Virus record (IMG/VR): IMGVR_UViG_3300046839_000025
Source of the DNA: an uncultured virus (IMG/VR IMGVR_UViG_3300046839_000025)
Taxonomy: Duplodnaviria; Heunggongvirae; Uroviricota; Caudoviricetes
Reading direction: 5' to 3' (one strand)
Length of the DNA: 64,000 nucleotides
The notes below the pieces were generated by a model that was not told the DNA's origin, made no database searches, and was given only the letters and a program-made list of their open reading frames with translations. The position numbers were made by a program, and so were the translations under genes. Below, one piece after another: positions 2,571-50,005 of the stretch (position 1 is its first letter; every line of letters starts with the position of its first letter).

Positions 2571-3776
2571 TTAACCTGCAGCCTTTACAGAAAGGCCTCT
2601 GACTGCTTCTGGAAGGATCAGCTTTCCATCCACACGTTCTGACGCGAGGAAGCCGATCTGGCCGTTTGCTGCGTAAAGCTCAGACAGCCTCTTGAAAGAC
2701 CGTCCCTGACAGTCTGCAATCCAGTAGTAAGAGAAATCTCCAAAGAGGATCGGCACCTTGCCTGCCGCAAGCTCCGGTGCGTAGATCGAAGTTCTATACG
2801 GGCGGTTTAAGATGGTGTCCGGCTGGCCGGCGACTACGGAGGGCTGCCAGATATAGTTGTTGTTTCCATCCTTGATCTTACGAAGAGCTTTGACGGTGGA
2901 GTCGTTCAGAATCCAGACGGCGCTGTTTCGATAGACGCTCCGAAGAGAGTGGAAGACGTCCATCATGGCATCAAAGTTGATGCTCGTGTTGCTGATTTCT
3001 GTCAGGGCTTCCTTATTTGATGCGACTTTGGTAAAGACGCCTTCCGGCTTCTTGCTTCCGTCTCCAACAAGGAAAGCCTCTTCTTCAGCTGCTCCGATTC
3101 GTCTAGCAAACTCCGTAGAGATGTATCCTTCCAGATCAAAGACCGAGTCGTTCATCAGCTCTTCAGACACCTTGATCGCGGTACCAAGCTTGTAGGCAGA
3201 CAGCGTGATCTGATCGAAAGTGTCGTCAGATTCTGGGTAAAGCCCGTTTTCATCCATCCAGGACGCAGTGCCGTGGGAGGCGACGATCGGGATGGTGTGG
3301 GTTCCGGACTGGGTCTGAATCACGTGAGCAATAGAACGGAAGAAGTTCTCATCGGTAAGAGCCTGAAGTAACTGCCTCTCATATTCATCTGGCACCAGGT
3401 AGCCACCGTTCGCGTCTGTACCAACTTCAAGAACGTTGTTCACATCAAACCAGTTGCGTCTTCTGATGGAGTCCCAGAAAGCGGTTTTGTAGGCTTTCGA
3501 AGAGGTTCCTTTTTTCTCCTCTGGCTCTGCTTTTACGCCAGGCTTTGAGGTAAGAGGAGATGAGGTCGGCTGATTTAACATCTGGTCGATCTGCTCCTGC
3601 CTCTGCAGGCGCTCAATGTCGCAGGTCAAATCAGTAACTTCTTTTTCCATTTTCTCGTAGGTTGCGGCATCTTCCTGGGAGACGTTTCCTCCGTTATCAG
3701 AATGCGTATCCAGGAATTCTTTTGCCGCATTCCAGGCCTTGGCTCTTTTCTCCATGAGATCTAAAATCTTAGTCAT
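2571..3776 (-). CDS. Major capsid protein, HK97 family
   Basis: Coiled-coil delta domain, GGYLVP, FGDFSYYWIAD. Confidence 0.95.
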   Translation of the reverse strand: MTKILDLMEKRAKAWNAAKEFLDTHSDNGGNVSQEDAATYEKMEKEVTDLTCDIERLQRQEQIDQMLNQPTSSPLTSKPGVKAEPEEKKGTSSKAYKTAFWDSIRRRNWFDVNNVLEVGTDANGGYLVPDEYERQLLQALTDENFFRSIAHVIQTQSGTHTIPIVASHGTASWMDENGLYPESDDTFDQITLSAYKLGTAIKVSEELMNDSVFDLEGYISTEFARRIGAAEEEAFLVGDGSKKPEGVFTKVASNKEALTEISNTSINFDAMMDVFHSLRSVYRNSAVWILNDSTVKALRKIKDGNNNYIWQPSVVAGQPDTILNRPYRTSIYAPELAAGKVPILFGDFSYYWIADCQGRSFKRLSELYAANGQIGFLASERVDGKLILPEAVRGLSVKAAG

Positions 3777-41361: not shown

Positions 41362-42930
41362 TTATTTTTCAATCTCCACGCTCACGCCGGATTTGAATTC
41401 AACGGTGAAGCGAGATGGGTATACGGTGATTTTCTGAATCAGTCTGCGCACGAGCTTTTCGTCAAACTCGGTAATTTCTGCGCTCTGCTTCCCGATGAAA
41501 TCCTGCAGCTCGGAAATTCTATCTAAAGCTTCTCTCTGTTTGCAGCTGTCCGCTTCGGCCTGTTTCTTTTGCTCTCTGAGCCGGAAGATCTCGTCGGCTA
41601 TTGCATTGTAGTCCTGTTTGCTGTTTGCTTTTTGGATAAGCTCTTTCTGAAGCTCATTGAGCCGATCCTGGATGCCATCCGGGGAGAGGGTATCGGCTTT
41701 CGAAACAGCCCTTGCGATGTTTTCCTGAAGCTGCTGAATAAAGGAAGATTTATCGGTAAGGATCTGGTTGATCGCGTCAAGCGTGATTTCTTTCAGCAGT
41801 TCTTCTTTGACGGTCCGGTTGGTGCAGTTGATCTCTGCAGATGATGGCTCCAGCCGGCTGATGCAGCGCCAGACGATGGACTTCTTTCCGTGGTTATTCC
41901 AGTGGACGCGCCGGTAAAGGTCACCGCATTCACTGCAGAAAACAATCTGGGAAAAGCAGCAGCTGCTGGAAAAATTACGCTTTTTCCCAGAAGGGCTTTT
42001 ATGAACGTTGCGGCGGCGGACAATCTCAGCCTGGACCTGCATGAAAATGTCTTTTGGGATAATTGCCGGATGGTCGCCCTCCACGTAATACTGAGGAACA
42101 GAGCCGTCGTTTTTGATTCGTTTCTTGGTAAGAAAGTCGACGGTTACCGTTTTCTGAAGAAGTGCATCGCCAAAGTATTTCTCGTTTCGCAGGATCTTGT
42201 TGATGGAGGAGATCCACCATTTCGTTTTGCCTGCACCGGTGAGGATCCCGTCTTCTTCTAATCCTTTTGCGATCTGTCCCATTGAGTAGCCATCTAGGTA
42301 TTCCCGGTAGATGCGCTTTACGACTTCGGCTTCCTTTGGGACAATGACAAGCTTTCCATCCGCGTCTTTGGTATAGCCGAGAAAGCGGGTGTGATTGACC
42401 TGCACTTTTCCCTGCTGGTAGCGGTACTGCAGTCCAAGCTTAACATTCTGGGAAAGGCTCTGAGATTCCTGCTGAGCAAGGCTGGCCATGATGGTAATCA
42501 GGACTTCACCTTTGGCGTCCATGGTATTGATGGATTCTTTTTCAAACCAGACCGCGATGTTCTTTTCTTTGAGTTTTCGAATGTACTTCAGGCAGTCCAG
42601 AGTGTTCCTTGCAAATCTGGATATCGATTTGGTGATGACCATATCGATGTTTCCGGTCATGCATTCTTCAATCATCCGGTTGAATTCTTCTCTCTTCTTG
42701 GTGTTGGTGCCTGAGATTCCGTCGTCCGCGAAGATCCCGGCAAGCTGCCAGTCCTCGTGGCTTTTGATGTAATCGGTGTAGTGGGAGACCTGGGTTTCAT
42801 AGCTGGTTTCCTGTTCATCTGTATCTGTAGAGACGCGGCAGTAGGCAGCTACGCGCAGCTTTGGCTTTTCAGATTTCTTAACGCTGTTTCCGACCTGTCT
42901 TCTGGCGGGGATAATGGTTACGTTTGACAA
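41362..42930 (-). CDS. Large serine recombinase
   Basis: [24 protein letters not shown], recombinase domain and Zn ribbon (CSECG..WRC). Confidence 0.95.
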
Positions 42931-42933
42931 TTT

Positions 42934-43338
42934 CTACACCTCGCTTTCAATCAGGCTGTATAAAAACTCGGCTTGCTGTTTCGGATCTTCAAAGGACCGA
43001 TTCGCTGGGAGCCGGTGAAAACGTGTCGGAGGGATGCGCTCTGGCTTTTCCTTGCTTTTTCCTTTTGTCCGACCTAGCTTATGAGCTCTCCGCATGCGTT
43101 CTTCCGCGGCAAGGTCAAAAGTGCACCTATCGATGATGGGAGGGTAGAAATCATCTCCCAGGTAATGCCGGTTCTCAAGGATCCGGCTGACGGATCCGTG
43201 CCGGGCATTGATTCCGGCCTCTTTGGCCGCTCTGGAGAGAGTCATGCCGGAGAGGTAGTTTTGGTAAAGCGTCCTGATTTTCCCGGCTGCAATTTGATCG
43301 ATCACAGCAGCTCCGTTTTTTATTTCATATCCGTACAT
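42934..43338 (-). CDS. Small recombinase-domain accessory protein
   Basis: YGYEIKNG, ILENRHYLGDDFYPPII, QQAEFLYSLIESE. Confidence 0.8.
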   Translation of the reverse strand: MYGYEIKNGAAVIDQIAAGKIRTLYQNYLSGMTLSRAAKEAGINARHGSVSRILENRHYLGDDFYPPIIDRCTFDLAAEERMRRAHKLGRTKGKSKEKPERIPPTRFHRLPANRSFEDPKQQAEFLYSLIESEV

Positions 43339-43340
43339 AT

Positions 43341-44912
43341 TCAAATCCTTTCCGTTAAATCGAGTCCGCATTTTAGTTCGAACGTAAGTTCATTTCTAGA
43401 CTTTACTATGATTTTGCTTACAAACTTTTCAAAAAGCTCTTCGTCGAAATCATCCAGCATGACACCTTTTTCGGTGAAGCGCAGGAGCGCAAAGGCAGAG
43501 GATGCTATAGCGGCTTTACTGCTTGCCGAATGGGAAAGCGTTTCTTTTTCCTTCCGGAGCGCTCCAGCTTCCTTTCTAAGGGCATTTGTTTCCTTTAGGC
43601 AGATCGCCTGACTGATGATGCCATCTGCCAATAGTTTTGTCAGGGTTTCCCGCTTTTCTGTGTTTTGCGCAAGATCGGTTTCGATCTGCTGGATTCTTCG
43701 GAGAGCGTCGTCTCTAGAGGAACTTCGGAGCGCCGCCGCATAAGGGCGGAGAATGGTTCTCCTGGAGAAAACGAGTTTGTTCAGCATCGTGACAAAGGCG
43801 TATTGAATCGCATCGTCCCGGATAAACTTCATGCTGCATTGCTTTTTATCTGTGATGTGAGTCTGGCAGCTCCAGACCGCGTAACGGTTTAGACTGCTGG
43901 AGCAGATCCTTCTTCGAAACACGCTGCCGCACTCTCCGCAGATAATTTTTCCGGAAAAAGGGTAGCGCTTCTGGTATTTACGGCCTTGCCTTTGGATTCC
44001 TTTTTCTTCTGCATGCTGCTGAATCAGTCTTTGCGCAGCATCAAACTCTTCATGGCTGATGATCGCCTCGTGGTGGTTATGGCAGAGGTACATCGTCTGT
44101 TCTCCATGATTGTGGTGCCGGTTAAACTGCGAATCGGTCCAGGTCTTTTGAAACAGGCAGTCACCGGTGTATTTTTCATTTGTGAGCATTCCTCTAATGG
44201 TACTTTCCGACCATTTGCCGCCACGTCTACTTGGGATCTTCTTTTCATTCAGATCCTTTGCGATGGCGGTCATTCCTTTCCCTGAAAGAAGAGAAGTGAA
44301 GATCCCTTTTACAATTTCCGCCTGTGCAGGATTCACAGACATCTTTCCATCTTTCCAGTCGTAGCCGTAGGGCACGCTGCCTGCCTTAAAGGTGCCGCTT
44401 TCAAACCGCTTTTGAATGGACCATTTGCTGTTCTGAGAAATGGATGAGGACTCATCCTGGGCCATACTCGAGAGAAGGGAAAGAAGCAGCTCGCTTTCCA
44501 TAGTTCCGGTGTCGATGTTTTCTTTTTCAAACCAGATCGGAATATGCAGAGACAAAAGTTCACGTACAAGCTGAAGACAGTCTGCCGTATTCCTTGAGAA
44601 ACGGCTGATTGACTTGGTGATCACGAAGTCGATTTTTCCTTTTCTGCAGTCTTGCATTAAACGCATCAATTCCGGGCGCTTGTCTTTCTTTGTCCCGCTG
44701 ATGCCTTCGTCAAAGTAAAGCCCTGCAAACACAAGATCAGGTCTTGCTGCGATGTAGCTTTCGTAGTGTTGTTTCTGGGTTTCTAAGCTTTCCAGCTGCG
44801 CGTCCATATCGGTGGATACGCGGCAGTAGGCTGCCGTCCGAAGTTTCTCTGGCTTTGCTCTTGTTTCTTCTATTTTCGTTACTTTCTTCAATGCTTTTTC
44901 CTCCTTTTTCAT
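43341..44912 (-). CDS. Large serine recombinase
   Basis: [36 protein letters not shown]. Confidence 0.95.
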   Translation of the reverse strand: MKKEEKALKKVTKIEETRAKPEKLRTAAYCRVSTDMDAQLESLETQKQHYESYIAARPDLVFAGLYFDEGISGTKKDKRPELMRLMQDCRKGKIDFVITKSISRFSRNTADCLQLVRELLSLHIPIWFEKENIDTGTMESELLLSLLSSMAQDESSSISQNSKWSIQKRFESGTFKAGSVPYGYDWKDGKMSVNPAQAEIVKGIFTSLLSGKGMTAIAKDLNEKKIPSRRGGKWSESTIRGMLTNEKYTGDCLFQKTWTDSQFNRHHNHGEQTMYLCHNHHEAIISHEEFDAAQRLIQQHAEEKGIQRQGRKYQKRYPFSGKIICGECGSVFRRRICSSSLNRYAVWSCQTHITDKKQCSMKFIRDDAIQYAFVTMLNKLVFSRRTILRPYAAALRSSSRDDALRRIQQIETDLAQNTEKRETLTKLLADGIISQAICLKETNALRKEAGALRKEKETLSHSASSKAAIASSAFALLRFTEKGVMLDDFDEELFEKFVSKIIVKSRNELTFELKCGLDLTERI

Positions 44913-44942: not shown

Positions 44943-45128
44943 TCAAGAGTTTTCTGGATCGATTTCCGAGAAAAGAGGAGGAAAGGTCTTAAAGTTGATG
45001 TCCGAGAGCCGGTTGAATTCTTCCTTGCTGATCAAGCCGGAATCAAGAAGAAGCTCTGCAATTTTCTGCGCCCTCCGGGAATCTAGTTCTGCCTGCAGTT
45101 TTTCTTTCGTATAGTATGTGTTGTTCAT
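44943..45128 (-). CDS. SHOCT-like small protein
   Basis: LLDSGLISKEEFNRL; AGGAGG RBS; precedes the recombinases. Confidence 0.75.
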   Translation of the reverse strand: MNNTYYTKEKLQAELDSRRAQKIAELLLDSGLISKEEFNRLSDINFKTFPPLFSEIDPENS

Positions 45129-45151
45129 TTTGGAAAGCCTCCTTACAGGTC

Positions 45152-45200
45152 TTCCGTCAAAAGAAAATCAGAAGTCCGTACTCTGGACTTCCGATTTCTT
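45152..45200 (-). promoter_or_regulatory. GTACGGA...TTTGACGGA motif copy 2, overlapping the polA terminator hairpin
   Basis: aagaaaatcagaagtcc/ggacttccgatttctt stem overlaps the motif. Confidence 0.55.
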
Positions 45201-48082
45201 TAGTCTTTTTTGTAGAACGAACATTCGTACCCATCAGCCCGAAGAAGAAGCCCTGGCGCCCAGGGAGGCGTTCGTCCCATGAGATCACAGATCTCCTGAA
45301 GCTCGGTCTCAAGAGGGCACTCGATAATCAGCTCATCGTGGACGTGGGCGACAATAGAGCAGTCTGAGAGATTGTGCATGGCATAGCAGAGGATGTCTCT
45401 TGCGATGGCCTGGATGATGTTCTCCACGAACTTTGGCCCGTAGGACTCAATCCGCTCCCACTTTTTCGAAGGGCCTATTCCCATGTAAGTAACCGATTCC
45501 TCTCCGAAGCGGTTTTCTCCAATCTGGGGCTTTACGTAAGACAGTCTCCGGCCAGATGGCAGGGTGATAAACAGCATCTGGCTTTGGCATTTGATCGTCA
45601 GGCCATGCGTTTTCGTGACTATCTTCTTCTTTACCGCTGTTTTTACCGCCCGGTCCACATCCCACCAGAGCCGCACGATGTGGGGATTGGCTTTTCTCCA
45701 CATGTCGACGATGGGTTTAAGCTCAGATTCCTTAAGGCCCATCTCGAGAGCGCCCATAGCCTTTAGAGCTCCTACAGAACCTCCGTATCCGCAGTTATGA
45801 ACTAATTTCCCCGATACGGTAAAACGGTGATATTCTCCGGCATTTCGTATGTCATAAACTCTAACCTTGCCTCGATGAGCCGCCAATTTTTTCTCTTTTC
45901 TTTGACAGCCTGCTCTGCACTTTCTATAATCCCCGTACGGTCCATTCCCTGGCTTAGCTTCTTGATTACAACACTTCTGGCATAAGGCCAATATTTCTGA
46001 TGGAATTCGCTTAAGACGGTATTCCTTCGATTTGCCTGGTTCTGCCTGCGAGTTGCGAAGCGGATGTTTCCAGGGGCATAATTTCCATTGTTGTTGATCC
46101 GGTCGATTTCCATTTCCCGGCTTGGAAGACCGAAAGTACGAATGAGATAAAGCCCGGCTTCGGTTACTGATGGAAATTCGAACTTTATGCCTCGTCCTCC
46201 ATAGTTTGGATAGTTGCGGTCCTTTGGATTTGTGCATCGTTGTTTTGCAGCGGTAAGACGTCTGTCCAGCCATACCGGGATTTTCCTCGGTTGGGAGCAA
46301 TGCTGACAGCCCCTGGATTTTCTTCTTCTTAGACTTCCAAGGTCTGTCCATTGGATTCTTCCGCAGCCGGTGCATTGGGTTAGAACATAACACCGGTTCC
46401 AACTCTCGCTCCAGCGCTTTTGGGGACTGATAATCTTCACCCAGCCGTACTGCCTGCCTACTATCTCCTGCCTGTATGAGATGTGCGCCGCTTCTGGCGG
46501 CTTCTTCAAAGTGTACTGGCTGACATTTCCCTTCGATGAAAACGAGGTGATCTGGTGTTGCGGTAAGTCCTTCATAAGTGATTACCTCCTTTCTTCCTCT
46601 GTAGACTACTCCGTCATGCTTTACCCAGGACTTCCCGTCCCAGAGAAGATCACTCCTTGTTACAGATTCTATCGGCTTTAAGCCGTGGTTTGTAAGTACA
46701 GGCTGGCCTTCCGCGATGCAGGCGAGCACTGCGATTTTCCCTTTCTGGCGGAGCTCCCCGTTGATGCCGTGCTTGACCACGGGAACGCCAAACATGGCAG
46801 AAGCCGTGGAGCAGTAGATATCTTCACCCTTCGCAAAAGCATCCATCGTGTGGGTTTCTCCCGCCAGCCAGGCGAGAACTCTAGCTTCAATGGAGGAGAA
46901 GTCGGAAACGATGAACTTGCATCCCTCCCGCGGGATAAAGGCGGTCCGGATCAGCTGGCTTAAGGTATCCGGGATGTCATCATAAAGTAACTGAAGAGCT
47001 TCATAGTCACTAGATTTTACCAGAGCTCTTGCTTCTCCTAAATCCGGCATGGTATTTCTTGGAAGGTTCTGAAGCTGAATCAGGCGCCCTGAGAATCTTC
47101 CGCTTCGGTTGGCGCCGTAGAACTGAAACATCCCTCTGGCCCGTCCATCCTTACAGGCTGCGTTTTCCATTGCCTGGTATTTGCGCACAGAGGATTTCGC
47201 TAATTTCTGGCGTAGCTTCAGGACTTCCTGAATGCTGGGCGGCGCTGTTTTAATCAGTTCTGCAACCGCTTTCTTTCCAAGGGTCTCTGTTTCGATGCCG
47301 CGCTCCTTCAGCCAGCTTTTCATTTGCATCACGCTGTTTGGATTTTCCAAGCCGGTCAGGTCCCTTAGTTTATCTGTCAGTTGCTGTTTGGACTGTTCAT
47401 CAATTGTAATGGCGGACCGAACAAGCGTCTTATCAATCCTAATTCCTCTGTCGTTGATCTTCTGATCGAGCTTGTATTCTTCCCAGACGAAATCCGGGAC
47501 AGGGTAGTGGGAGAGTTTCCTTTGGATAGACATTTCGACCTCCACATCCCGCTTGTTGTAGAATTTAAAGAGATTCCACTTTTCTATTGCGTCAGATGGG
47601 AGGTTCCGCGTTTTACCTCCGTTTGCCTTCGTTGGCCTGCAGGGGATGCAGAAATAGCGGATTAAGTTTTTACCCTCTGTCAGCTTCTGCTCCTTAAGGC
47701 CAAGAGCCTCACCAGATTCTTTTAGAGATAACGGAAGCCCAAGGTAGGCAGACCAGATCATGGAGCAGCGCCAGTTCTTAGGACTTAGATACTTTGCAGA
47801 GAGCCGCTCGGGATAGCAGCGGTGAAGATACGTAGACAAGCAGACGCGTTCAAAGTTAGCGTTAAAGGCCCATTTAGAAATTTCATCGTCTGTCAGGGCG
47901 TCTAAGATGCCTCTTGGAAGCCTTTCTTTTGCCGCAAGGTCTACAACCTGAACCGGGCCATCGTCCAGCGCGTAACCAAAGAGCAGAATCTCAAAATCAG
48001 GAGCCTCTGCATATCGGTACACGCCGGATTTGTTCAGGTTGATGCTGGAATAGGTTTCAATATCGATGTGAAGTGTTTTCAT
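45200..48082 (-). CDS. polA: Phage family A DNA polymerase containing an intein (651 aa after splicing)
   Basis: HIDIETYS exonuclease, QLQNLP, SDFSSIEAR motif A, KGKIAVLA|CGYGG motif B, HVHDE motif C. Confidence 0.93.
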   Translation of the reverse strand: MKTLHIDIETYSSINLNKSGVYRYAEAPDFEILLFGYALDDGPVQVVDLAAKERLPRGILDALTDDEISKWAFNANFERVCLSTYLHRCYPERLSAKYLSPKNWRCSMIWSAYLGLPLSLKESGEALGLKEQKLTEGKNLIRYFCIPCRPTKANGGKTRNLPSDAIEKWNLFKFYNKRDVEVEMSIQRKLSHYPVPDFVWEEYKLDQKINDRGIRIDKTLVRSAITIDEQSKQQLTDKLRDLTGLENPNSVMQMKSWLKERGIETETLGKKAVAELIKTAPPSIQEVLKLRQKLAKSSVRKYQAMENAACKDGRARGMFQFYGANRSGRFSGRLIQLQNLPRNTMPDLGEARALVKSSDYEALQLLYDDIPDTLSQLIRTAFIPREGCKFIVSDFSSIEARVLAWLAGETHTMDAFAKGEDIYCSTASAMFGVPVVKHGINGELRQKGKIAVLACIAEGQPVLTNHGLKPIESVTRSDLLWDGKSWVKHDGVVYRGRKEVITYEGLTATPDHLVFIEGKCQPVHFEEAARSGAHLIQAGDSRQAVRLGEDYQSPKALERELEPVLCSNPMHRLRKNPMDRPWKSKKKKIQGLSALLPTEENPGMAGQTSYRCKTTMHKSKGPQLSKLWRTRHKVRISISNRSRALSHSYFRSSKPGNGNRPDQQQWKLCPWKHPLRNSQAEPGKSKEYRLKRIPSEILALCQKCCNQEAKPGNGPYGDYRKCRAGCQRKEKKLAAHRGKVRVYDIRNAGEYHRFTVSGKLVHNCGYGGSVGALKAMGALEMGLKESELKPIVDMWRKANPHIVRLWWDVDRAVKTAVKKKIVTKTHGLTIKCQSQMLFITLPSGRRLSYVKPQIGENRFGEESVTYMGIGPSKKWERIESYGPKFVENIIQAIARDILCYAMHNLSDCSIVAHVHDELIIECPLETELQEICDLMGRTPPWAPGLLLRADGYECSFYKKD
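45794..46720 (-). mobile_element. Intein, 309 aa (C1...HN/C+1)
   Basis: Block A CIAEGQPV, block B TATPDH, block F VYDI, block G LVHN followed by Cys; removal restores motif B. Confidence 0.92.
45802..46575 (-). CDS. HNH-type homing endonuclease nested in the +1 frame of the intein
   Basis: AGGAGGT 8 nt before ATG; CTGCG..GCQHC, KQRCTNP..NYGGRGI, EIDRINNNGNYAPGNIRFAT..NQANRR. Confidence 0.85.
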   Translation of the reverse strand: MKDLPQHQITSFSSKGNVSQYTLKKPPEAAHISYRQEIVGRQYGWVKIISPQKRWSESWNRCYVLTQCTGCGRIQWTDLGSLRRRKSRGCQHCSQPRKIPVWLDRRLTAAKQRCTNPKDRNYPNYGGRGIKFEFPSVTEAGLYLIRTFGLPSREMEIDRINNNGNYAPGNIRFATRRQNQANRRNTVLSEFHQKYWPYARSVVIKKLSQGMDRTGIIESAEQAVKEKRKNWRLIEARLEFMTYEMPENITVLPYRGN

Positions 48083-48138
48083 GTTTTCTCACCTCAGGGT
48101 AAAAGGCGGCAAGAATATCTCACCGCCCACAAGTAGTC

Positions 48139-48300
48139 TTATGCGTCACGTTCTTTCTGCCGAAGCGCTCTTCTTGCTTCCTTTCTTTTGTCCTCCCGGA
48201 TAGAGTCAAGCAGAAGCTTTATTCCAAGACACGCCCAGGAGAGAAGAAGGAGGCTGAAGCTAAAAACAAGCATCAGGCAGAGAAATGAGGATAGATTCAT
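48139..48300 (-). CDS. Small membrane protein (53 aa, not in ORF track)
   Basis: AGGAGG RBS; hydrophobic N-half then basic tail. Confidence 0.55.
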   Translation of the reverse strand: MNLSSFLCLMLVFSFSLLLLSWACLGIKLLLDSIREDKRKEARRALRQKERDA

Positions 48301-48312
48301 TGCAAGCCTCCT

Positions 48313-48858
48313 TTACGCCAGAAAATCATCTTCCGAACTTTCCAGGGCAGTGAAGTCATCAGCCGCGTTGCTATGACCGCCAAGGGGCTCGCCGTCACGG
48401 ACTTTCTGGATATTTCCAAGCCCGCAGGCCACGCCCTTGTTTCCGTTGGTGTTAAAGGCGTAGAAGTTGATGGAGACTCTGGCGTAAACGCCGCTGTAGA
48501 CTTCGGAGCGGTCCAGGATCGGCTGAACTCTACCGTCTACGATCTGAGGCGGCGTCATGCTGTTGGCATTGATAAAATAGCATCCCGCGTATGCCGGATC
48601 ATCCTTTTCCGTGTCGCCATCCCGAAGAGGAAGCTTCAGCGCTGCCTTATTTGGCTTTTTTCCTCCGAACTTCCCGATGCCTTCTTCAATCGCGGCATCG
48701 ACTGCCTTGTTGATTTTCTCGATGGTTTCCTTATCTTCTTTAGAGATGATCAGGGATGTGCTGTATTTTTCCTTTCCTCCGTTGATGGATTTTGGCTCCC
48801 ACACGTTGGCGTAGGAGAGTCTTACGGTACCGGTTACGACTTTTGTTCTGTTCTTCAT
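48313..48858 (-). CDS. DUF2815 family ssDNA-binding protein
   Basis: VRLSYANVWEP, LPLRDGD, GVACGLGNIQK, acidic tail DDFLA. Confidence 0.9.
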   Translation of the reverse strand: MKNRTKVVTGTVRLSYANVWEPKSINGGKEKYSTSLIISKEDKETIEKINKAVDAAIEEGIGKFGGKKPNKAALKLPLRDGDTEKDDPAYAGCYFINANSMTPPQIVDGRVQPILDRSEVYSGVYARVSINFYAFNTNGNKGVACGLGNIQKVRDGEPLGGHSNAADDFTALESSEDDFLA

Positions 48859-50005
48859 TTTTCTTCCTCCAATGTTTTAAATTCTTCTTTTGCATTTTCG
48901 ATGTTTACTTCTGGCCGTTTGTCTGTGCTTGGCACCAGCGTCAGCTTCCCAGGAGGTTTTACAACCAGGCTGCCTAAGACATTTTGAAAGGTTTTCTTTC
49001 CCATCAGCTTTTCCATTTCGGTGATGGAAATCAGCTTACGGATGTAGATATCGTGAAAGCCGGCTTTTTCCGCGGCCTTAATGACAGCGCTTTCGTCCTT
49101 GTATTTCCGATTGCTTCTTCCATGAACGAGCTTCCAGTTTTTCCATTTCTTTCCGTGATGGATCGCCATGTTTGATGCGTACGAGCTTATGTCATTTGCC
49201 CATTTGTGAGCCTGGGAAGAAGGGGCAGGAGCTCTTCGATTTCCTCATCTGTGAGCTTAGGCGGGAGGGCAAATTCCTTCCGGGCAAGGGATAAATTGGC
49301 TTCTGCTCTTGCCCGGCATTTGACCGCGGCCTTGCAGAAAAGACACCAGTCGCCGCAGCAGAAATCTCCATTTCCTTCATTGGCAAGTTTCGCTTTTGGC
49401 TTGAGAACATCGATAGCCCATTTCTTGAGCTCCTTTACCGATTCCGTCCAGGTGCTGATATTCTCCCGCCTTGGCTGAAAGATTGTCATGGAGACTTCCT
49501 CAAAGTCGTAGAGATGTTCATAGAGATCTAATGCGCCAAGGGCATACAGCTTCATCTGCGGATTTTCCTCAGCTTTAACGACAATTCCCTGACCGTACTT
49601 GAAATCGATGACGTGGAGCCTGCTGTCTGACACGATGATGCAGTCCGAGGTGCCAAAGGATCCAGGCACGTATCTTGTCAGATCTAATTTTGTCTCCACA
49701 TAGACCTTCGCGTCCGGGCAGGTCTGTTTCTCTTTCTCCCATTGCTCCAAAATGTAGTCCCGGTAGTCATCGGTGAAGCCCTCCATCTCGTCTGAATCAA
49801 AGCTTGATATTGGTCTGCGGCTTCGCATCTTTAAAGCCTTCTTCAGCTTGTGCTCGGCCAGCGCGTGAGCCGCGGTTCCTTCTGCGGCAGCAGGCGTTTC
49901 CTTATCCGCAAAATCAAGTTCAAACCTCGGCGCTCTGGTGCAGTGAAGCCATCTTTCCGCGCTGGAAGGAGAGAGGATGGCGTGATTTCTAGCTGGCACT
50001 TCCAA
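48855..50005 (-). pseudogene. DUF2800 (PD-(D/E)XK, Cas4-like) nuclease split by one frameshift at ~49205
   Basis: HAILSPSSAERW, GTSDCII, IDFKYGQG, QMKLYALG, WCLFC; adding one A (acaaatgg) joins the two ORFs. Confidence 0.8.

Follow-up and report, generated by a model that had tools for sequence, protein, structure and literature searches.

Can an intein and the gene that may spread it be written over each other, in two reading frames of the same DNA? The question is raised by a 64,000-nucleotide stretch of an uncultured virus of the class Caudoviricetes (IMG/VR record IMGVR_UViG_3300046839_000025), hereafter the window, in which a prophage gene for a family-A DNA polymerase carries an intein with a second open reading frame (ORF) nested in it. 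An earlier note, made from the letters alone, had proposed that the nested ORF is the homing endonuclease of the intein, translated as a separate gene; its coordinates for the polymerase, the intein, the nested ORF, the AGGAGGT motif and the ATG all turned out to be exact to the base. Here we find that the intein is dual-coding, with frame-specific purifying selection, and that this arrangement is the product of neither chance nor assembly error. Our preferred explanation, to which we assign a probability of roughly three in four, is a mobile intein with two functions written in two overlapping frames. The argument relies on the following features.

45200..48082, minus strand: ORF of the family-A DNA polymerase precursor, 960 amino acids (aa), or 651 aa once the intein is removed
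45794..46720, minus strand: intein, 927 nucleotides (nt) or 309 aa, polymerase residues 455-763
46466..46720, minus strand: intein residues 1-85, the N-terminal splicing region, which contains block A (CIAEG) and block B (TPDH)
45875..46465, minus strand: intein-frame linker and dual-coded stretch, residues 86-282, an open frame whose protein sequence is not conserved
45794..45874, minus strand: C-terminal splicing region of the intein, residues 283-309, VYDIRNAG..HRFTVSGKLVHN
45802..46575, minus strand: nested ORF in frame +1 relative to the intein frame, 257 aa, HNH-like putative homing endonuclease
46573..46575, minus strand: start codon of the nested ORF, an ATG formed from tAT-Gaa (Tyr-Glu) of the intein frame
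46584..46590, minus strand: Shine-Dalgarno (SD)-like AGGAGGT, 8 nt before the nested ATG, within K-E-V codons of the intein

Two frames kept open by different selection

The intein frame is free of stop codons in all 41 sequences that we compared (40 loci and the window), three of which are truncated by contig ends. Thirty-one of the inteins (that of the window and those of 30 loci) are 309 aa long, and in 29 of them the +1 ORF reaches at least 257 aa, the exceptions being L011 (242 aa) and L003 (195 aa). Six loci (L021, L023, L024, L034, L035 and L040) failed a stricter boundary pattern and were excluded from later counts. Over intein nt 211-838, both frames are open and no intein-frame stop was found in any of the 30 unique sequences. 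To see what chance would give, synonymous codons of the +1 ORF were shuffled over the same positions, 2000 times per sequence. The shuffled intein frame contained on average 10.4 stops for the window and 6.4-15.0 across the 30 unique homologues; it stayed open in 0 of 2000 shuffles for the window and in at most 0.1% for any sequence. The third frame holds 8-21 stops over the same stretch. With 6-15 stops expected and none present, the intein frame is held open by selection, and the claim of the earlier note that the two frames are open beyond chance is upheld.

What each frame is selected for can be seen when the 30 unique inteins are aligned without gaps, together with flanks of 150 nt (pairwise identity 60-99.7%). 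Variation is greatest at position 3 of the polymerase-frame codons in the two exteins and in intein nt 0-209, and it shifts to position 1 of these codons, equivalent to position 3 of the +1 frame, in intein nt 210-839. Finally, intein nt 840-929 show low variation at all three codon positions, which points to a double constraint there. The ratio of nonsynonymous to synonymous substitution rates (dN/dS) in the middle region was estimated by the Nei-Gojobori method for 29 pairs of 75-98.5% identity, which are non-independent and come mostly from two clades. It amounts to 0.00-0.25 in the +1 frame and to 0.25-3.9 in the intein frame, with five pairs undefined in the latter. For the window and L004, for example, dN is 0.061 and dS 0.861 in the +1 frame, versus 0.174 and 0.175 in the intein frame. 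Together, the codon-position and dN/dS patterns indicate that the middle of the intein is constrained as a +1 protein, and in the polymerase frame only to stay open.

The arrangement is also consistent between assemblies. Contigs of four independent sequencing runs differ over 45700-46800 by substitutions only, with not a single inserted or deleted letter, so that the HNH-like ORF has not been displaced from the intein frame by an error in the reads. Overall, 19 runs from 16-17 studies contain at least half of the words of the stretch; there is no RNA run among the runs listed with it.

A class 1 intein inserted in the polymerase

The polymerase ORF has a sole Pfam match, to DNA_pol_A, in which residues 228-452 align with profile positions 31-214 at E 3.8e-25, and Pfam intein models gave no match to it at E 0.1. 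The limits of the insert can nevertheless be set by an intein-less phage polymerase, L121 (645 aa), which aligns to precursor residues 1-454 and 765-960 at 55-57% identity on either side. Because both flanks are aligned, the intein represents an exact insertion of 309 aa. At the insertion site the intein-less L125-L127 read ...KVAVLA|CGYGG. The site corresponds to position ~214 of the DNA_pol_A profile, which we take to be polymerase motif B in the O-helix.

The intein starts with Cys1 (TGC, 46720-46718) and ends with the His-Asn at 45794 (VYDIRNAGEYHRFTVSGKLVHN), followed by the Cys+1 codon at 45793-45791. These class 1 termini (C1, terminal His-Asn and C+1) are invariant in 25 of 25 sequences, and the same holds for I2, A3, E4 and G5 as well as for T55 and H58 of the block B Thr-x-x-His motif (T55-P-D-H58). 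In the C-terminal splicing region, Y289, D290, F300, T301, V302, S303, H308 and N309 are invariant. In the AlphaFold2 (AF2) model of the intein frame, the predicted score of the local distance difference test (pLDDT) is 84-93 for residues 1-85 and 76-89 for residues 283-309, and falls below 50 for residues 86-282, which are disordered. Among PDB structures the model is closest to the gp41-1 intein (Z 16.0, root-mean-square deviation (rmsd) 2.2, 117 aligned residues), the Mtu RecA intein (Z 15.9) and NpuDnaB (Z 15.2), and all 30 chains at Z >= 8 are inteins or Hint domains. As judged from its sequence and its model, the insert is a class 1 Hint-domain intein with a predicted Hint fold, and it would splice to turn the 960-aa precursor into a 651-aa polymerase. 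The proposal of a dual-coded intein is thus borne out by frame-specific selection, by exact insertion and by the predicted fold.

Start signals of the nested ORF

The nested ATG sits in the Tyr-Glu codons of the intein sequence '...EVITYEGLTATPDH', ahead of block B, and the nested stop codon TAG (45804-45802) is made of the Leu-Val codons of the terminal LVHN. The Tyr codon at the nested ATG is TAT in all 30 unique inteins, which keeps the ATG in every one of them; by comparison, TAT has an average share of 0.54 among extein Tyr codons, and of 0.38 among those of the polymerase in the window itself. An SD core (GGAG, GAGG or AGGA) is present 5-16 nt before the nested ATG in 28 of the 30 unique homologues, compared with a background of 37 of 554 (7%) out-of-frame ATGs of N-exteins. 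The Glu codon within the SD site is GAG in 23 of 30 sequences versus a background of 0.40. Homologues therefore keep both the ribosome-binding site and the start codon of an open +1 frame, in line with the earlier note. Most likely, the nested protein is translated independently, from its internal SD and ATG.

What the nested protein may be

A clue to the identity of the nested protein comes from PHROG profiles annotated as 'HNH endonuclease': phrog_374 (E 1.1e-24), phrog_3377 (E 6e-19) and a third such family (E 2.2e-12). The match to phrog_1035 'endonuclease VII' is at E 0.0045. One relative, P0261, matches Pfam HNH_3 at E 0.003 (17.6 bits, below the 24.8 cut-off). A search of the ESM Atlas with residues 97-195 gave leads below 0.9 only, namely an 'HNH endonuclease family' and clusters with NUMOD modules in 11-20% of members. 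The AF2 model has a mean pLDDT of 74.9, with residues 1-17 disordered.

The protein carries NYGGRGI and DRINNNGNYAPGN motifs, and its layout consists of four invariant cysteines (C68, C71, C90 and C93), a core of the form YGGRGI...DRINNNGNYAPGNIRF...N and a helical tail. Across 35 diverse relatives, C68, G126, F134, R159, Y166 and N170 are invariant. The HNH-like core (residues 156-182) keeps D158, R159, N170, N179 and N182. We refer to the protein as HNH-like, not as a canonical HNH enzyme, because this core has no conserved His, and we infer that it is a nuclease and acts as a homing endonuclease.

A large and mostly unannotated family

Genome loci with homologous DNA number 37 and belong to Peptoniphilus, Anaerococcus, Lachnospiraceae, Oscillospiraceae, Selenomonas, Acidaminococcaceae, Pelotomaculum, Allofustis and Gardnerella, and such DNA is also present in phage records, including Streptococcus Javan phages and Gardnerella phage vB_Gva_AB1. 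Relatives of the nested protein number 787 in a 90%-identity cluster database; among 50%-identity cluster representatives there are 57,919 at E <= 0.001 and 70 at E <= 1e-30. All seven of the seven close phage records annotate only 'DNA polymerase' over the nested gene, which has been overlooked by gene callers and depositors alike.

In IMG/VR, scans with the distant relatives P0125 and P0140 as single sequences were without matches, and an alignment query then found relatives. Down to ~30% identity these are encoded at 80 loci. At 60 of them the gene lies within a longer ORF whose open frame is a different one, with the same phase as in the window in 55 cases and the other phase in five. The host ORFs were scanned for 49 of these 60 loci, some of which duplicate genome loci, so that the counts are non-independent: 35 are family-A polymerases (four below the Pfam cut-off), 10 are superfamily 2 (SF2) helicases and four are without a match. 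Related Hint ends flank the nested genes in the host-frame translation at several distinct insertion sites.

Some of these hosts deserve separate mention. The SF2 helicases (L066, L067, L073, L075, L076, L080, L081, L083, L090 and L092) have the nested gene out of frame in related inteins; a ResIII domain is found in all ten and Helicase_C in nine. The helicase of L092 has a second intein of another type (Hom_end_hint) near its N-terminus. In L089 (444-4304), a host ORF of 1287 aa combines a uracil-DNA glycosylase domain, a family-A polymerase and an intein with the nested gene.

Signs of gain, decay and exchange

Intein presence is polymorphic. Polymerases 95-97% identical to P0277, a cluster described below, are without the intein and read ...KVAVLA|CGYGG. 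Mini-inteins of 120-168 aa without the +1 gene occupy the same site in L037-L040, and L032 has a form of 260 aa. In close pairs the intein is 97-100% identical versus 87-96% for the extein flanks. For the pair of Streptococcus phages L001 and L003, identity is 91-100% within the intein, 92-100% in the nearest flanking segments and 73-84% farther out. In L003 itself (Streptococcus phage PhiSdyV1524-fexAoptrA, locus 2721-3308) the nested ORF is the one that ends at 195 aa and the intein frame is open, a pattern to be expected if the nuclease gene decays first.

The record nearest to the window, G001 (214 kb, IMG/VR class provirus, with 98% of the window's sampled 31-letter words in common), has two copies of the nested ORF (L123 and L124) ~67 kb apart. 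One is identical in protein to that of the window and the other is 96% identical. From 400 nt upstream to intein nt ~199, the second copy is 100% identical to L004 (Eubacterium sp. F2); over intein nt ~215-704 it has a single difference from the window copy, and beyond that it is mixed. In the window the shared part is as follows.

46016..46505, minus strand: tract near-identical to the second polymerase intein of G001, intein nt ~215-704, with flanking intein and extein only 74-92% identical

Sequencing runs X1 and X2 give a single contig path over 45938-46505 and two variants on the low-coordinate flank (45779-45967), in agreement with a mosaic second copy. Further mosaics of splicing domain and nuclease core were sought among 31 sequences, and this pair was the only one found. 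Finally, in cluster P0277 (962 aa, seven member sequences) nuclease residues 53-200 are in frame with the polymerase intein at 53% identity; judging by its sequence, P0277 is a canonical-style version of the same element. A scan of viral DNA for this variant yielded no alleles but intein-less, mini-intein or distant ones. Rare frameshift fusions are represented by P0274 and P0271.

Proposed explanation and its alternatives

According to the explanation that we prefer, the polymerase frame would provide the N- and C-terminal halves of a class 1 Hint splicing domain, joined by a linker of ~197 residues. As protein the linker would be meaningless, and it would need only to be stop-free, which allows synthesis of the precursor and splicing of the intein to leave the 651-aa polymerase. 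The +1 frame would provide the 257-aa HNH-like protein, made from the internal SD and ATG between intein blocks A and B. As a homing endonuclease, this protein would cut intein-less polymerase alleles, the probable target being ...KIAxLA|CGYGG..., and repair of the break would copy the whole element into the cut allele.

Several observations weigh against this explanation. The nested protein is matched by no Pfam family (E 10) and no NCBIfam family (E 0.1); a profile search of PDB sequences returned only a chance-level match (E 0.63), and Foldseek against the PDB returned nothing at E <= 0.001. Its best match to an HNH fold, PacI (3m7k_A), is weak (Z 5.5, rmsd 3.1, 76 aligned, residues 97-185), and the match to the GVE2 HNH structure 5h0o has Z 2.8. 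The conserved catalytic His is absent from the core, none being invariant or 90% conserved across the 35 diverse relatives, and Arg159 presumably occupies the general-base His position of the HNH_3 consensus. Hence the HNH-type core seen in the earlier note is supported as far as the PHROG profiles go, whereas likeness to solved HNH enzymes is weak and a conserved catalytic His is missing. In addition, the SD signal is partly forced by conserved Glu-Val codons of the intein, and the higher similarity of inteins in close pairs could partly reflect double constraint instead of recent transfer. The missing His, the invariant Arg159, the lack of a Pfam HNH match and the weak fold match would all suit a +1 protein that is no nuclease but a DNA-binding or accessory protein of HNH-fold descent, with mobility due to another enzyme or to general recombination. 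We find this unlikely in view of the strong purifying selection on the nested ORF, its 57,919 relatives, many of them in mobile contexts, the PHROG 'HNH endonuclease' matches and the conservation of D158, N170 and N182; moreover, the presence/absence polymorphism and the decay forms fit a homing cycle.

Another view would leave the nuclease but change its target, making its gene mobile by itself and directed at intein DNA (a mini-intein) instead of the empty site in the polymerase, that is, a parasite of the intein. The mosaic second copy of G001 speaks for this, as does the coincidence of its left breakpoint with the switch of the selected frame at ~nt 210, and mini-inteins exist as potential targets. 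However, the mosaic is seen in just one pair among 31 sequences and would be explained equally well by ordinary recombination of two co-resident prophages. Furthermore, the nested relatives reside in inteins with alike splicing ends, so that the whole unit may move together, and intein-less alleles at 95-97% extein identity point to gain and loss of the whole intein. We therefore consider such targeting improbable. Even less credible is removal of the insert as RNA, as a group I or II intron with an ORF, or synthesis of the nuclease by ribosomes that leave the polymerase frame at a programmed +1 frameshift. All that favours the frameshift, for which no slippery site was sought, is that the frames overlap for 146 nt before the conserved part of the nuclease, and nothing favours the intron: Rfam has no intron family in 45000-48300 at E <= 1, and the only match there is snoRNA-like and sub-threshold (25.7 bits against a gathering score of 43), which we attribute to chance. 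Both variants are also countered by a host frame that stays open, by the presence of the Hint fold and of the C1...HN/C+1 boundaries, and by the conservation of SD and ATG. As for the layout being an artefact, with an in-frame HNH domain displaced by a frameshift, or a decaying relic, the in-frame core of P0277 and the fusions P0274 and P0271 might seem to support it. Yet the two frames are common to 30 unique sequences of independent assemblies, which include complete genomes, and the ATG and SD are conserved. Codon-position variation, the low +1-frame dN/dS and the indel-free contigs of four runs refute this reading, to which we give practically no credence.

Beyond the preferred explanation, one may speculate that the nested nuclease gene is a selfish module in its own right, living as a parasite on a parasite, that colonises and moves between inteins and sometimes fuses into the intein frame, giving rise to canonical endonuclease-bearing inteins. 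We regard such a life cycle as possible, though doubtful. It is suggested by the exchange tract, whose extent in the two co-resident polymerase inteins is essentially that of the nuclease core, by the one cluster with the core in frame (P0277) and by relatives that lie nested within inteins of polymerases and helicases at several sites. If this is so, the mosaic tract, the in-frame cluster and the multiple sites would be snapshots of one life cycle.

Comparison with known systems

An intein with an endonuclease gene out of frame on the same strand is a known kind of element, and the layout has been described before, which justifies the caution of the earlier note about novelty. Our literature searches found nothing on the polymerase motif-B intein family of Bacillota and Gardnerella prophages. 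A 2025 survey of actinobacteriophages reports, in the part of its text available, an endonuclease VII-like gene in 'frame 3' of inteins and non-canonical endonuclease types which, taken together, occur in DNA polymerase and three other host proteins. Its authors propose that a free-standing endonuclease invaded the intein and predict its later move into frame by indels. As far as that text describes them, those inteins resemble the one studied here in having an endonuclease ORF on the same strand, in another frame and between the splicing blocks, and in the unstructured middle of the intein frame. They differ from it in frame and type: the window ORF is in frame +1 and matches 'endonuclease VII' only at the E value given above. 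It also starts ahead of block B and ends inside the codons of block G. The hosts of the present family, prophages of Bacillota and Gardnerella, set it apart from the survey by the description in the text, and the families may overlap.

A cyanobacterial dnaX intein has an out-of-frame LAGLIDADG endonuclease according to the accessible part of a preprint (Phillips, DeSimone, Gogarten; bioRxiv 10.64898/2026.09.14.751524), which builds on the out-of-frame endonuclease genes in inteins of Gorbalenya 1998, 'Non-canonical inteins'. From the same part of that source, the similarities to the window are as follows: the middle is disordered when read in the intein frame and folds when read in the other, Shine-Dalgarno motifs lie upstream, the endonuclease frame has a low dN/dS and the host frame a raised one, and full, mini and empty alleles coexist. 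The dnaX element is different in that its endonuclease is LAGLIDADG, not HNH-like, its frame is +2 and its host is a cellular clamp-loader gene, not a phage polymerase.

A further likeness is offered by Hamiltonella phage APSE-1 (GenBank AF157835), whose P45 is 31% identical to the window polymerase. P45 has a related intein (C..VLT..G..PIE..WDG ... VYDL.N.GP.NRF...VHN|C), and a same-strand +1 ORF, P46, is annotated as nested within it. P46 matches the core of the window ORF at 39% identity over 75 aa (E 1e-11). The insertion site is different, lying after ...YGGK at the equivalent of window residue 884, and P46 is shorter (140 aa, core only) and is given no function in the record. In ShiLan, as described in 2025, an out-of-frame HNH ORF is hidden in a host gene without a splicing domain. 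There too the host gene's own frame is open around the hidden ORF and the distribution is disjunct and homing-like; no ribosome-binding site is detectable in ShiLan, and its authors propose a GTG start with leaderless initiation, whereas in the window element the Hint domain is complete and a strong SD accompanies an ATG. In fractured genes, finally, the intein is split and a free-standing endonuclease gene lies between its two halves (Dassa et al. 2009, PMC2677866). To judge by the portion of that paper available, they share with the window an endonuclease that is a separate gene inside the intein locus; in their case two ORFs share out the host gene and the intein, whereas here the intein is contiguous and the two genes overlap in frame.

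Genes next to the polymerase

Two minus-strand ORFs of 104 aa (48855-49169) and 272 aa (49187-50005) lie side by side and match successive segments of a single exonuclease profile, phrog_69, at positions 375-479 and 82-361, respectively; the exonuclease gene adjoining the polymerase module thus seems to be divided into two. Three serine-recombinase ORFs (522, 145 and 523 aa) stand in a row on the minus strand at 41362-44912, directly downstream of the polymerase, and mark the prophage end. Each of them matches phrog_95 'integrase'. A further match, to a profile named 'DNA invertase', is to phrog_125 for the two long ORFs and to phrog_7701 for the short one.

Significance

The element adds a large and well-conserved family, spread over Bacillota, Gardnerella and gut phages, to the few inteins with a mobility gene in a second, overlapping frame. 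It is of value because the family is large, the start signals are clean and the core is His-less, and because there are hints that the nuclease gene behaves as a separate module. The His-less core raises the question of how, or whether, DNA is cut by a very abundant family of proteins (57,919 clusters); if they do cut it, their catalytic chemistry is unexplained. With a clear SD and ATG, the element is also a convenient bench system, since a substitution that is silent for the intein frame is enough to remove the start, and cultured phages that carry it exist, such as Gardnerella phage vB_Gva_AB1. It thereby gives access to internal initiation within a translated gene, to triple constraint on one stretch of DNA and to the question of whether the endonuclease domains of inteins arise from invading free-standing genes.

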